Assembly: GCA_951406725.2 (NCBI GenBank)
Contig: OX597827.1
Location: 45,694,001-45,758,000 of the forward strand
Origin: Octopus vulgaris
Taxonomy: Eukaryota
Direction of reading: 5' to 3'
Length of the DNA stretch: 64,000 bases
Each line of letters opens with the position of its first letter. Position 1 is the first letter of the stretch. Below are positions 5,237 through 47,012 of the stretch, piece after piece. The notes under the pieces were generated by a model. The model saw only the letters and a program-made list of their open reading frames with translations. It ran no database searches and was not told where the DNA came from. Position numbers and translations under genes: made by a program.

Positions 5237-5258
5237 AGCGACATCAGTTCCCCATTCC
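5237..5258 (+). other. Conserved 22-nt element copy 1 (subfamily A)
   Basis: agcgacatcagttccccattcc; flanks gacaaagc..ctatc..cacaga and acctgaatgca shared with copy 2. Confidence 0.85.
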
Positions 5259-8200
5259 TATACAACGCATTTTACCTGAATGCAAGGGGGAAGGAGGAAG
5301 GAAAAGAAAAGAGCCAGTTGAAGAATTTCGGTTGTTTTGTTTTTATTTAGTTATTTTTTGTTTGTTTGTTTGGTCTGTTTGTTGCTTCAGGCTCCTTGTG
5401 GAGCCTGCAAAATGAATAGGTAAGATGCGTGCGTACGTGTGTATGTGTGTACGTATGCGTGTGTATGTGTGTGCGCGTCTGCGCGGGCTCGTGTGCTTTG
5501 TGTGTTTGTATGTGTGTGTGTGTGTGTGCATATGTGCGTGCGTATACCTGTATATATATATAATATACATACGTCTGCTTGTGTGTGTGAATGTTCGTGT
5601 AAAATAAATTAGCGTGTGTGTGTGTGTGTACATGTGTGCGTTTACGTGTTTGTGTACGCATGTGTGAATGTGCGTATAGGTATGTATGTAATGCCTACAT
5701 CCTCACCTATACACGGGTTCGTGAATGTGAAGCGCACACCTTTGGTTTACCTGTGTTGTTGATTGATGTGTATATATATATATATGTAGTAGTGTACATT
5801 ATATGTAGGTGTGTACATATATGTATGTATGTATGAACATATGTGTTTGTGTGAGTGTGTGTCTGAGTCTGTCCCCGCCGCCGGTGTTGATGTGTTTACG
5901 TCATCGTAACTTAGTGGTTCGGCTAAAGATATCGATAGAATAAGGACCAGACTTTTGAAAATAAGCACTGGAGTTGATTAAGTTCGGCTAAAGATTTCTC
6001 AGGCCGGTGCCCCAGTATGGCCGCAGTCTATGACTGATACAAGTAAATAATGAAAGATAAAAAGATAGGCGCAGGAGTGGCTGTGTAGTAGGAAGCTTGA
6101 TTCCCAACCACATGGTTCTGGGTTCAGTTCCACTGCGTGGCACCTTGGGCGAGTGTATATAGTGTGTGTGCGCGCGCGCGCACGCGTATATGTAGCTTTC
6201 GAATGATCTCACGTCGGTAGGTAGGCGGGCGGGACAATATTCCCCTTGAACGGAACGCCAATCACTCGCAGTGTTGCTCATTTTACGGCTGATTGAACTG
6301 GACCAATGTGAAGTGACTCTAGATCATTGTTTCCCGACATATTTTCCTCTAGGCCCTACAATAACTTTCCAGAAAAATATGTCCCAACAATGGTCGGAAA
6401 AATAACTTTATTTTTAATATCTTATCACTATTACGTTCTGAGTTCACATTTCGCCGAGGTCGAGACTTTACCTCCGGGGTTGATGAAATAAGCACCAGTT
6501 GTGGACGCATTCTTTTCCCCGCAATTGTTGGCCTTGTGCCAAAATTTGAAATTTATATTCTCATTTAAAATAGAAAATAATCTCCCGGTAACTCTTTTAT
6601 TAAGTACCGAGTACAAAACAAGGACATTATTGACGAAGAGAAAATAATACAAAAAACAAAAAAAAACAGGATTTTCACAATTCTATGTCCCACTAAAAAG
6701 AAAAAAAAGGAAAAAACTTTGGATCCCATGCCTCGGCTCCACCAGTGGGGCGTATGCTCCACATTAGGAATCATTGCTGTAGACTTTGGACCCAAACAAT
6801 GACGTAAAACCTATCACGAATATCCTACACTACAAAAGCAAATGTTACACAGCAAGCTTCAAAGCTAATGGTGCCTTTGCAACTAGAATAAGGTTTTCCT
6901 TGCCCTTCTTTTCTGAACAGTTATCTCCCTTACCCACAACAATAACAATAATAACGATAACCAATTACCTCCAATTATTTATCTACTTGTGAAGTCATTC
7001 ACTCGTGAATTTCATCACACACAACATGGACAAAATTTCTTCTTAAGAAAAACTATATATTCTAATAAGTAAAACATAATACCATGAATAACGATAGTGA
7101 AACCGGTCGATATATTAAAAATTATATTAAAACTATGTAAGTGTGCGTATTTTCCTTTTTTAATTTCTTATATATATATATATATATATATATATATATA
7201 TATGTACAAAAATGGGACAGGAACGCGAAACATCCAGACAGTTAGGTGAAACAAAAAAAAAAAGGAAAACAAAATATCCAGACAGACGATACAAGGAAAA
7301 CAAGTACGGATCATTCGGAGTTTTCTATCCTCAGTCAAGTTCCAGATTATCTTTGCAATTTCGGCTGGTTATACCCGAGGTTGCTCCAATCTGGCCAGCC
7401 CCAAGGAAAAAATAAGCTAAGAGCATTACATTCCTTGCAAGAAAGCAGCGGAAAAAAACAAGGACGGAAAAAAACCCAGAAATCTTATACAAATACAAAT
7501 AACAGGACAGATAAACTTAGATGTTTCATGGATATGTGTGTGTGTGTATGTGTGTGTGTGTAGATATTATATACGTATATCATATTGATATTCGCATGTA
7601 TATACGCATGTATGTATATATGAATAAATATGTATGTATGTGTAGTTATGTATAGCTTGATGTGTTTTGTCTGTGAGTTGGTGTGTAAATAAACAGGCGA
7701 AGTATGTATGACTTACTGAATGCTATTCAATAAATTGCTGCAAAGAGCATAACAGTAACATCAACAACAATCACAACAACAACACCAATAATAAACAAAG
7801 CAAACTGTAGGGAAATTCCAACATTCCGCACGTGAGACAGAGAATAGGGGACATGAGAAGATGGGAAATGGTAGGGGTGGTGGAAAGAGCGGGGGACGAG
7901 AAAGGGACGGTTTGAAATGACTGCTGGAGTATGGGATAAAAGTTGGGTAATGGAGGGAAATGTATGAAAGAATCACGGTTATAAGAAAGGAATAAGAAAG
8001 GGATAAGAAAGGGATAAGAAAAGAGTTGACGTGTGTGTGGTGAGGCTGGCAGTGGTGGATGTTTTTCTAAGGATACAGATGAGGAGGGGTTTTGCAGGAG
8101 TGGGGACACTGGGGGAGCAACGGTGGTGGTGATGGTGATGACTGTGATGGCGGTAGTGGCGCTGGTGGTGATGATGGTGATGACTGTGATGGCGGTAGTG

Positions 8201-9614
8201 GCGCTGGTGGTGGTGGTGGTGGTGGTGATCGTGGCGATGATGGAGACGGTGTTGGTCTTGTTGGTGGTGAGGCAGTAGTGGTGATGGTGGCAGTGATGAT
8301 GTTGGTGCTGGTAATGATGATGATGATGGTGTTGGCGGAGGAACTATTAGTGGTGGTGTTGTTGGTGATGGTGGTGGTGGTGATGATAATGATGTTGGTG
8401 ATGGTGATGGTGGTGGTGGTGAAGTTGGTAGTGATGATGGTAGTGGTGGTGGTGGTAGAGATGGCGGTGTTGGTGGTCGTCGTCATGGTGATGATGATAT
8501 TGGTGGTGGTGGTGGTGGTGGTTGAGGTGGAGATGGTGGTGACAGTGGTGATGGTGATGTTGGTATGTTCTTATTGTTATTAGTGGTGATGGCGGTGGCG
8601 AGTGATTGAGGGGTGGAAGCGGTGGCGATGGACACGTGACATGGAAGTCTGATGAAGGTGTGGAGGTGGAGCAGTTTCTTCAGTAGATGTGTAGTGGGGG
8701 AGAAGTGCGTGGTGTGGGGGCGGAGATTTGGAGGTTATGGATAGTTGTGTGTACCATTGAGTGGAGGTGTGGCGGTGGCGGGTGGGAGTGGTGTTGGTTC
8801 TGTGCGAAGAAGTGGGGGATATGGTGCGTATGGGGGTATATCGTCTGAGAGTGATAGATGTATGCATGTGTGTATGTATGTGTGTGGATGTGTGCGTATC
8901 TGTGTGTACGTGCGTGTGTCTGTGTGTGTACATGTGTGTGTATGTGTGTGCGCGCGTGCGCGTTCGTATGTATATCTATGTGTGCGCTTATATGTCTATG
9001 TACTTGTAACTATGCATGTGTATATATATATGTGATTATGTGTCTTTATGTGTGTGTGTGTGTGTGTGTGTGCCTGTGTGTGTGTGTGTGTCTACGTACA
9101 TATGTGTATGTGCATGTGTGCATGTGTGTGTCTGGTTGTACTTGTGTGCAGTTGGGCGTGTGCGTGTAAGAGTATGTGCGTGTGCATACGTGTGAATGTG
9201 TGTGTGTGCATGTACTTATGTGTATCTATATATATATATATATGTGTGTGTGTGTGTGTGTGTGAGTATGTGTGTATGCATGTGGGCACGTTTGTGTATG
9301 TGTAGGCGGAAGAAGGAGAGGGTTAAGTAAAGTCATGGAACATGGTTGAGAAAGAAACTGGATATGTCTGCTGAAAGGAAAAGAAGGCGACAAAGTTTAT
9401 TCAAGGAGAAAAAAGTTGAAAAAAATGGGAAAAGGAGAGAGGAAGATTATAAAGAAAGGGATTAAAAACGAGGGCAATGACACGGACAGGAAAGGCAGAC
9501 AGACACACTGACAGACTGGCAGTTAGTCCCCTATATTTTTTCGGTTTCTTTATTCAATACTATCATCCCCCGTTCTATAAGTACTCAATGTCTTACTTTT
9601 AATCCGGATATTAG

Positions 9615-45377: not shown

Positions 45378-45675
45378 TATATATACCAATTAAGGACTGA
45401 ACACGAAAAGTGGACAGTCAACATGCTAGATATAGACGTCAAATCGCCATTCACCACAAAAGATTATGTTCTCAGATCAAACTCAACACAAAACCATAGC
45501 AATAAACAAGTGAAAAATATACGTTTATTTCGTATATTTTTCACTTGTTTATTGCTATGGTTTTGTGTTGAGTTTGATCTGAGAACATAATCTTTTGTGG
45601 TGAATGGCGATTTGACGTCTATATCTAGCATGTTGACTGTCCACTTTTCGTGTTCAGTCCTTAATTGGTATATAT
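45378..45675. repeat. Perfect palindrome with ~145-bp arms and a ~7-nt spacer
   Basis: ..gtgaaaaatatacg tttattt cgtatatttttcac..; outer ends ataccaattaagg / ccttaattggtat. Confidence 0.9.
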
Positions 45676-46990
45676 ATATATGTATATATATATGTATTGA
45701 TATATATATATATACATTTATGTGTGTATATATATATATATATGAATATATATAAATATATGTATGTATATATATATATATATATATGTAAATGTATATA
45801 TATATATGAGAGAACTAAGTGTACTTATATATATATATATATATGTATGTTCATAAACACATACATATACAAATATGAAAGTAATCACATACACATACAT
45901 TGCGCGCACGCGCACATGCACAAACTCTCTCTCTCTCTCTCTCTCTCTCTCTCTCTCTCTTACATACATATATGTTCTATTACACACGCACACACACACA
46001 CACTAGTTAGAGTAGATTTTATTCTCGATGTTTTGATGCTTTTGTTGGCGGCGGTGCAGCCGTATTAGTAATTGTAGTAGTAGTAGTTGTAATGGTTGTG
46101 TTGGCTGTGGTGGTCATGGTGGTTATGGTGTTGATGTTAGTGGTGGTGGTGGTGGTGGTGAAGAATTTAGTTGTAGGGGTAAAACTCACCTTTTTGTCAA
46201 AATATCTTTGATAGCTTGCGTGTATGTGTGCGTGTGTGTGTGTATGTGTGTATGTGTGTGTGTAAGTGGTGGTCCTGATCTCTCTCTCTCTCTCGCTTTC
46301 TCTCATTCTCTCTCTCTCATTCTCTCTGTCTCTTATTGTCCCCCTCTGTCTCTCATTCTCTCTCTCTGTCTCTCATTCTCTCTATCATTCTCTCTCCCTC
46401 TTTCCCACTCTCTCTATCATTCTATCTCTCATTCTCTCTCTCTCTCTCTCTCATTCTCTCTCTCTCTCTCTCTCATTCTCTCTCTTTCTCATTCTCTCGC
46501 ACTGTGTCTCTCATTCTCTCTCTTTCTCATTCTCTCTCTTTCTCATTCTCTCTCTCTCATTCTCTCTCTCTCTCTTTCATTCTCACTCTCTCTCTCATTC
46601 TCTCTCCTTCTCATTCTCTCTCTCTGTCTCTCATTCTCTCTCTCTTTCTCATTCTCTCTCTCTGTCTCTCATCCTCTCTCTCTCTCTCATTTTCTCTCCC
46701 TCACTCTCTCTCTCTCTCTCCTGTCGGTGAGCCTGCTGGTCGGCTGGCCGCTTTCTTTTTCGTTTAGAGCTGAACAGCATAATAAGAACCGGTGCAAAGG
46801 GTAGGTGTCGTTGAAGGAAGGTACGGAGAGTAAGAGGAGTGGGAAGAGGAGGGAGAAGAAGACAAGGATGAGGAGGAAGAGGAGGGAGAGCAGAATATGG
46901 CAGCATGCCGCTTACACACACACACACATACGCACTCTCACACACGTACTCGCATACACACATACACACGCACACACTCAGCAACACTGT

Positions 46991-47012
46991 AGCGACACCA
47001 ATTCTACATTCC
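46991..47012 (+). other. Conserved 22-nt element copy 9 (subfamily A)
   Basis: agcgacaccaattctacattcc followed by tacacaatcaatcaccacctg, like copy 2. Confidence 0.8.

Follow-up and report, generated by a model that had tools for sequence, protein, structure and literature searches.

Introduction

The rex/MEX sites, pairing-centre motifs and the olfactory 'Greek island' enhancers are clustered recruitment or composite-enhancer motifs. Nematode 21U piRNAs are marked by an upstream motif, and their thousands of loci are clustered on both strands, with flanks that are free to vary. Zinc-finger genes are very numerous in cephalopods. The three-dimensional genome of cephalopods is reorganised, and boundaries and loop anchors are, as far as partial accounts go, characterised by motif enrichments for known factors only. 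Vertebrate protocadherin clusters contain tandem arrays of CTCF sites, including the CSE with its CGCT box and super-enhancer sites (PMC7811963, in part).

A 64,000-nucleotide stretch of Octopus vulgaris DNA, hereafter called the window, was originally predicted to contain nine dispersed elements of 22 nt, present in both orientations and unrelated to any recognisable transposon. Promoters of small transcripts, a zinc-finger or insulator site, RNA-pairing elements and recombination or inversion sites were proposed as candidates. The element was found nowhere described in literature searches.

Results

All nine elements were recovered as exact matches, with the predicted coordinates and strands (Table 1) and with distances of 1489-9035 bp between them, matching the 1.5-9 kb given earlier. 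No extra copy appeared at up to 3 mismatches, the mean for shuffled sequence was 0.16, and none of 100 shuffles reached 9. The nine are thus real, but the size of the array had been underestimated: the window holds 9 of 47 copies of a rigid 23-base word (23 on the plus and 24 on the minus strand) distributed over 278 kb of contig C14 (C14:45,503,425-45,781,552). The window lies wholly inside this span, with 36 copies to its left and 2 to its right, and its nine copies are near the right-hand end of the larger array.

Table 1 Copies of the element in the window (window positions) and the two genes on either side of the array (positions on contig C14). Organism E is another species
Feature	Position	Strand	Remark
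Copy 1, subfamily A	5237..5258	+	AGCGACATCAGTTCCCCATTCC; the GGAATG strand is minus
Copy 2, subfamily A	12404..12425	+	exact match
Copy 3, subfamily A	15748..15769	+	exact match
Copy 4, subfamily B	22179..22200	-	counterpart in organism E with matching flanks
Copy 5, subfamily B	25490..25511	-	organism E contig spans 25435-25544, 4 letters differ
Copy 6, subfamily B	26979..27000	-	counterpart in organism E
Copy 7, subfamily B	31302..31323	-	exact match
Copy 8, subfamily B, inverted relative to copies 4-7	37956..37977	+	exact match
Copy 9, subfamily A	46991..47012	+	exact match
CCK-type receptor (CCKR-like) gene	coding exons C14:45,417,030-45,188,589	minus	start codon 86 kb from array
MGAT1-like gene	coding exons C14:45,896,507-45,833,916	minus	3' end 52 kb from array

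The element is concentrated at this locus in the genome. Of 22 exact matches genome-wide, 20 were within the array and a reversed-pattern control gave 0; a relaxed pattern placed 46 of 59 matches there (control 5), and a second relaxed scan 40 of 46 (control 0). The thousands of dispersed hits that would have marked an ordinary repeat were not found. Solo matches outside the array lie in non-coding context, and around six of them no second copy was present in the surrounding 20-80 kb; only the solo match on contig C18 also carries the accessory word TGCAACA. Scans of metagenomes (23 matches) and viruses (1 match) returned singletons in unrelated, mostly GC-rich contigs, which were regarded as chance.

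The strand order of the 47 copies is arranged in blocks (15 runs compared with 24.5 expected, p 0.003), with neither a divergent nor a convergent orientation pattern. Some units are recent duplicates of 1-1.9 kb with 85-94 % identity, and the array grew by local tandem duplication and inversion.

The consensus over the 47 copies, on the strand opposite to that originally given, is W-GGAATG-N5-YTGRTGTCGCT, and the CpG within the core is kept in all 47. The bipartite layout proposed earlier, a 13-nt box separated from ATTCC by exactly four variable nucleotides, proved rigid, although its 'TT' is not constant in the 22 copies of a third subfamily, and at one of the four supposedly variable positions 41 of 47 copies carry G. 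That the copies lack indels is nearly true: among 49 exact 3' halves inside the array, GGAAT stands exactly 6 nt upstream in 46, at 5 nt in one and is missing in two.

The third, middle subfamily was recognised only when all copies were considered together, in addition to the subfamilies A and B described from the window. The flank words assigned to the latter two were confirmed, namely ACCTG downstream of copies 1, 2, 3 and 9, with TACACAA in 2 and 9, for subfamily A, and a (C/A)TTCAAC box in copies 4-8, with CGTCAAT in 4, 6, 7 and 8, for subfamily B. The word CAG|GT, which resembles a splice donor, occurs upstream of subfamily A copies only. In the middle subfamily the core spacing is constant, and accessory blocks are found at 15-23 nt (located in 19 of the 22 copies) and at 12-19 nt. 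The word CAACANGT is present at most 35 nt upstream in 20 of the 47 copies, compared with 0.5 % of distal windows, counts that are not independent because the copies are related. Homology between subfamilies is confined to about 25-50 bp.

Mean pairwise identity among 21 divergent representatives was 0.96 in GGAATG, 0.51 in the spacer, 0.92 in the 3' half and 0.25-0.26 in the distal flanks, 0.25 being the chance level for these copies. When 1.064 Mb was searched with an HMM of the flanks only, i.e. a profile without the core, 22 hits were obtained and the core was intact in 22 of 22. Selection on the core therefore holds without motif-based ascertainment, and together with the rigid spacing this supports the earlier proposal of a selected site of fixed geometry. 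Absence of conservation at the orthologous locus, together with absence of chromatin or transcript signal, had been named as speaking against that proposal; copies 4, 5 and 6 have counterparts in another species, organism E. Copy 7 is covered by one contig from a run guessed to be RNA, which is evidence neither way.

Relative to the two genes of Table 1, the array is intergenic, between a neuropeptide (CCK-type) receptor gene and a housekeeping MGAT1-like gene. The gene screen had low sensitivity: its candidates included 5 of the 11 MGAT1 exons known, one of them in the top 300, and two CCKR exons were detected by tblastn only. Because of this insensitivity, small exons or non-coding transcripts may lie within the array, and nearness to the array is what suggests the target gene. 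Except for transposon domains, no Pfam family was found at array candidates among the 600 of 4264 candidate frames scanned, again at low sensitivity. A coding exon or splice-linked element was rejected, the donor-like word being restricted to subfamily A and no non-transposon Pfam family having been found in this low-sensitivity search. A Hox neighbourhood was rejected as well, with none of the 98 homeodomain matches listed (150 of 174 candidates scored) within 9 Mb, as was a protocadherin neighbourhood: with 150 of 1380 and 150 of 224 candidates scored, the listed cadherin matches on C14 fell at 0.6-15 and 79-83 Mb.

Discussion

On balance, the 47 copies are probably sites of one sequence-specific DNA-binding factor, and would act in control of the locus or as a boundary separating the CCK-type receptor gene from the MGAT1-like gene; this reading is derived from sequence comparison. 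The features on which it draws were observed directly: the number of copies and their restriction to a single locus, the rigid spacing, a core conserved between flanks that are at chance level, growth by local duplication and inversion, the position between the two genes, and subfamily-specific accessory blocks at variable distance. From these we infer protein binding, the zinc-finger nature of the factor, and action on the receptor gene or its insulation. The interpretation given with the original prediction thus stands in part: a selected site of fixed geometry was upheld and its protein-binding or insulator candidate fits best among the four, while the RNA-structure and recombination candidates are without support.

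The factor would most plausibly be a multi-zinc-finger protein, or else a pair of factors in fixed geometry. Each unit may span about 60-170 bp and combine, as a small module, the invariant core with looser accessory sites. The core would be read in the DNA helix, and it is proposed that for this reason indels are not tolerated and degeneracy is limited to Y/R; orientation is proposed to be without effect, so that inverted duplicates survive. Together the copies may act as a long-range control region or as a boundary between the receptor and MGAT1-like genes. Counting against a binding array, the full-length site is found at nearly one locus only, a distribution not usual among insulators or general transcription factors.

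A bolder possibility, which we consider rather doubtful, is that cephalopods have a factor of their own, either a zinc-finger protein that is new or derived from CTCF or else a variant SNAPc, and that it serves essentially a single locus. There the 47 selected sites would constitute the boundary of a megadomain, an enhancer hub acting in trans or a small-RNA promoter field of the nematode kind. If true, this would be a single-locus chromosome-architecture or small-RNA system so far undescribed in molluscs.

It is unlikely that each copy instead acts as promoter for a tiny non-coding transcript with an unconserved body, in the manner of 21U piRNAs and possibly recognised by a variant SNAPc-type complex. 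The array does resemble the octopus U1 snRNA cluster in architecture (24 of 42 U1 matches lie within 240 kb of C18, on both strands), and the flanks of its copies are free to diverge. An AYCAGT core is common to the upstream regions of U1, U2, U4 and U5, about 57-60 nt before the RNA, the element contains ACAYCAGW, and one U1 promoter type agrees with it at 11 of 14 positions. However, this shared core is 6 bp long and was spotted after several other motifs had been tried. With the weight matrix of the element the 47 copies reached 27.7-39.5 bits, whereas none of 53 snRNA upstream regions, one of them mis-oriented, exceeded 0.2, and the GGAATG half and GCGAC end are missing from these snRNA promoters. 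With at most 0.2 bits on the U1, U2, U4, U5 and U6 upstream regions, where an element would be expected about 60 nt before the RNA, AYCAGT alone is shared, and the small-transcript promoter candidate fails in its canonical snRNA-promoter (PSE) version. Downstream, neither a conserved RNA body (flank identity of 0.25-0.26 across subfamilies) nor a conserved start motif about 42 nt from the copies, where microsatellite often begins, was visible. The copies might still serve as promoters of small transcripts of another kind.

As a sub-case of the binding array, the copies might be non-canonical sites of CTCF or a CTCF duplicate in a tandem insulator array, an option to which motif comparison lends little probability. 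In the best register against the HOMER CTCF consensus the element retains TG..Y.GRKG.C.CT and agrees in 10.9 of 18 positions, with p 0.04 when columns are shuffled. Its terminal CGCT box recalls the protocadherin-promoter CTCF sites described in an excerpt of PMC7811963, the canonical CTCF core is enriched in the octopus genome (88 compared with 5 in the control), and the array has a housekeeping gene on one side and a receptor gene on the other. On the other hand, the consensus positions C8, C10, A12 and G17 are broken in 46-47 of 47 copies, whereas canonical sites of the octopus genome keep them, and the 15-bp core read by ZF3-7 is thus not preserved. Nor does the upstream module correspond to that of canonical sites, GGAAT at the array's offset being found in none of the 30 canonical sites examined out of 88. 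The canonical sites are dispersed without clustering, no copy occurred in 120 kb sampled from two protocadherin clusters, and the cadherin matches listed on C14 are more than 30 Mb away.

That the 23-mer acts as RNA, either as a microRNA-like product or as elements that pair any-to-any within a long transcript, is very improbable. Its length of 22-23 nt, sharp edges and 5' U/A would suit such a product, as would its start, which resembles the miR-1 seed, and copies in both orientations would permit pairing within one transcript. Against this, folding of the 47 copies gave mean z-scores of -0.05 on one strand and -0.56 on the other, 13 middle-subfamily units yielded consensus folds of 6 and 9 pairs with 0 compensatory changes, and no host transcript spanning copies was found. 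The RNA-pairing candidate is left without support from structure, and with z about 0 and no covariation there is no sign of the hairpin precursors, with the 22-mer on one arm, of microRNA clusters. Rfam gave no match at a copy among 150 of 370 matches listed, and none at gathering score in 18 loci. The supplements of PMC9699675, in which mature microRNA sequences are possibly not listed, contained no match to the element.

That the copies are sites of recombination or inversion, or the neutral remains of a transposon or recent duplication, is very unlikely in spite of the two orientations and the recent duplicates, since the similarity of upstream flanks goes along with that of downstream flanks (rho 0.43), no pair with one flank shared and the other swapped was seen (1081 pairs, one assembly), and the intact cores of all flank-defined units contradict neutrality. 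As originally claimed, no tRNA (in the window) and no target-site duplication of at least 6 nt (0 of 47 copies) is associated, and the short homology between subfamilies and the confinement to one locus are not those of a SINE, MITE or LTR end. Subfamily B has GGAA.CCAG in common with an abundant GC-rich repeat, but an origin from this repeat was rejected, as 17 of its copies showed a mean identity to the element of 6-11 of 22 and no consistent likeness in the flanks.

Under the favoured reading, a binding array, the locus offers a sharply defined, selected, multi-copy site whose natural spacer variants, such as one with a 5-nt spacer at C14:45,493,9xx, serve as controls, so that one pull-down may identify the factor and a single track of Micro-C or ATAC may tell boundary, enhancer hub and promoter field apart. 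Such a site would give concrete access to genome-architecture proteins of the lineage and to the way in which the CCK-type receptor gene is controlled.

Among known systems, the rex/MEX sites, pairing-centre motifs and 'Greek island' enhancers are likewise homotypic, locus-restricted and of fixed internal spacing, but their sequences are unrelated to the array core. The motif clusters of nematode 21U piRNAs share a conserved motif, free flanks, clustering and use of both strands, although their loci number thousands compared with 47 in the octopus array. The snRNA gene clusters with PSE promoters are similar in kb spacing, in occupying both strands and in the 6-bp AYCAGT core, whereas the array is without a conserved RNA body, is GC-richer and has an unrelated second half. 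With canonical CTCF sites, both in the octopus genome and at cephalopod domain boundaries as covered in parts of PMC9023564 and PMC13652810, the array has the G-R-K-G..CGCT ending in common, but those sites are dispersed singletons with CCASYAG. The vertebrate protocadherin CTCF arrays, as excerpted from PMC7811963, are alike in having many fixed-geometry sites per locus, a CGCT ending and a partial core match; the octopus array differs from them in four broken core positions, an extra invariant GGAATG module, the lack of orientation polarity and of a gene beside each site, and a distance of more than 30 Mb from the listed octopus protocadherin clusters.

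Extent and layout of the array

The nine 22-nt copies of the original prediction were found in the window, which occupies C14:45,694,001-45,758,000, at the predicted positions and strands, with no extra match at up to three mismatches, and none of 100 shuffles reached nine; the flank words distinguishing the subfamilies were present just as described. The array is real and larger than had been claimed, the nine copies belonging to a set of 47. The exact pattern has 22 matches in the 2.8-Gb genome, 20 of them on contig C14 at 45.503-45.782 Mb, and none in the reversed control. 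A relaxed pattern found 46 exact copies and one with a single mismatch in a 464-kb neighbourhood, every one inside this interval, and another 600 kb of flank searched at one mismatch yielded no additional array copies. Clustering at one locus was also seen with two further relaxed patterns applied genome-wide: the first placed 46 of its 59 matches within the array, with a control count of 5, and the second 40 of its 46, with a control count of 0.

On the strand opposite to that originally read, the element consensus is W-GGAATG-N5-YTGRTGTCGCT, with 13 of 22 columns invariant in 47/47 copies, an invariance in part built in by the search pattern. The array is 278,128 bp long, with 23 plus-strand and 24 minus-strand copies at a median spacing of 5.3 kb, arranged in 15 orientation blocks (24.5 expected).

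Features of the array, its surroundings and compared loci (C14, C18: contigs; L: fetched genome stretches)
Feature	Location	Strand	Details
CCK-type receptor gene	C14:45,188,589-45,417,030	minus	3 coding exons over 228 kb
MGAT1-like gene	ends 52 kb right of last copy	minus	11 coding exons
Degenerate or spacer-altered copies (three)	C14:45,493,975; 45,509,667; 45,663,306		natural controls
Solo full-quality copy	C18:50,982,174 (L022)		with accessory TGCAACA; second copy not found within 80 kb
Near-perfect palindrome	window 30028-30439		206-nt arms, no spacer
Near-perfect palindrome	window 45373-45681		151-nt arms, 7 nt between
Long inverted repeats	window 52499-52635; 54089-54389		Rfam matches sub-threshold
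Repeat of ~546-bp period	window 53086-56275		copies 100% identical; folds back on itself, the 884-nt arms complementary throughout; either a young satellite or a fold-back of the assembly
Exon-like open frame	L327:1715-2209	plus	165 aa, without Pfam family
U1 snRNA cluster	C18:48.97-49.21 Mb (L201-L214)

Selection on the core and origin of the units

Three checks were designed to escape the circularity of the motif search, namely the 3' half as anchor, a flank-only profile and pairwise identity among representatives of the subfamilies. The 3' half alone has 49 matches in the array, with GGAAT exactly 6 nt upstream in 46, at 5 nt in one and absent in two; in the remaining 764 kb it has three matches, 0/3 with GGAAT upstream. 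The downstream-flank profile, from which the core was omitted, found 22 places in 1.064 Mb with the core intact in 22/22, the 13 units of the middle subfamily (a third group of copies) on which it was trained matching by construction. When 21 subfamily representatives are compared in pairs, identity reaches 0.96 and 0.92 for the two halves, but is 0.51 for the spacer and 0.25-0.26 for the distal flanks. The core is under selection, and the predicted selection on a site of fixed spacing is borne out by the near-constant GGAAT offset, by the intact flank-defined units and by the identity of the halves relative to the flanks. Accessory blocks, looser words beside the core, slide in the middle subfamily, lying 15-23 nt and 12-19 nt from it, and core spacing stays constant. 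The block CAACANGT, which resembles Scratch-type words, is found in 20/47 copies; ATCRAT resembles Onecut-type words, and the 5' half of the element equals WGGAATGY, which we take to be the TEAD word.

Counterparts of copies 4, 5 and 6 were found in contigs of a run labelled as another organism, E. One contig spans 110 bp around copy 5 and differs at 4 letters, counted across core and flank together; for copies 4 and 6, it is the loose contig ends that agree with the flanking sequence. Against a nearby stretch, which may be a repeat paralogue, 37 letters differ in 334 bp.

The units arose through local duplication; the youngest have 1-1.9 kb in common at 85-94%, the oldest the core alone. Derivation from a common GC-rich repeat was rejected after comparison with that repeat, some copies of which (L068 and others) carry the CTCF-like AGGYGGCGCT.

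Candidate readings

The element is a bipartite DNA word under selection, with a rigid layout kept in either orientation; it is confined to one locus, between two genes, and the accessory blocks beside it slide. From its rigidity, freedom of orientation and confinement to one locus we infer a site read in double-stranded DNA, and we lean towards an array read by a sequence-specific DNA-binding factor, whose binding is predicted from sequence.

The main rival, a field of variant promoters of unconserved small RNAs, is rather unlikely. U1, U2, U4, U5 and U6 genes of this genome were collected for promoter comparison. The Pol II snRNA genes (U1, U2, U4, U5) have AYCAGT in common ~57-60 nt upstream, often with AATTAAT further upstream, and the U6 genes have ATGCWAATKAG and TATA. 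The element, which we take to resemble the fly PSE, includes ACAYCAGW, overlapping the AYCAGT core, and the geometry of the U1 cluster is like that of the array. However, the element matrix scores <=0.2 bits on 53 snRNA upstream regions versus 27.7-39.5 on array copies and no RNA body is conserved, which rules out the canonical snRNA form of the predicted promoter and leaves the shared AYCAGT.

Predicted binding by CTCF or a CTCF duplicate is improbable. The canonical core pattern, which we assume to be correct, is enriched in the genome (88 matches versus 5 in the reversed control), but these sites are dispersed over most chromosomes (L144-L173), and 0/30 canonical sites have GGAAT at the array's offset. 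Several have TTCC ending ~7 nt upstream. In its best register the element agrees with the HOMER CTCF consensus, as printed in a supplement of PMC13652810, at 10.9 of 18 positions (p 0.04, column shuffles, uncorrected for the other motifs considered); at C8, C10, A12 and G17, 46-47 of the 47 array copies depart from it.

That the element acts as RNA is very doubtful, and the proposed RNA pairing found no support; when single copies were folded with 45 nt on either side, z averaged -0.05 and -0.56, the consensus structures of 13 units had 6 and 9 pairs and no compensatory changes, and Rfam gave no match at a copy among the 150 listed and none at gathering score in 18 loci. A recombination or neutral reading deserves hardly any credence, with 0 flank-swapped pairs among 1081 copy pairs of this one assembly and no support for the suggested inversion sites; as predicted, neither TSD (0/47 copies) nor tRNA is associated.

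Flanking genes and comparison with known systems

A CCK-type receptor gene lies to the left and an MGAT1-like gene to the right. The minus-strand receptor has its start codon 86 kb from the left edge of the array, and the array is therefore upstream of the receptor, whose closest relative found is an Argonauta protein (84% identity across the queried exon). Between the genes, a low-sensitivity screen of 600 of 4264 candidate frames in 864 kb found transposon domains alone; because 5 of 11 MGAT1 exons were among its candidates, one in the top 300, and two receptor exons were missed, the array may hold small exons and non-coding genes. Homeodomain and cadherin matches, among those listed, are all far from the array, and two protocadherin clusters, searched over 120 kb, contain no copy of the element.

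The putative factor reading the element in double-stranded DNA would be a single multi-finger protein or two proteins in a fixed arrangement, and 47 sites would concentrate it across 278 kb. The array might act as a boundary that separates a housekeeping gene from the large regulatory domain of the receptor or, alternatively, as a long-range control region of the receptor.

The element is apparently undescribed, no account having been found in the mainly open-access literature searched. It is not classed as a CTCF site and may work like one; its likeness falls mostly on the triplets of fingers 3-5, by the finger-to-triplet assignment in PMC10484683. The array as a whole would belong to a known kind, the homotypic binding-site array, with a function suggested by its sequence.
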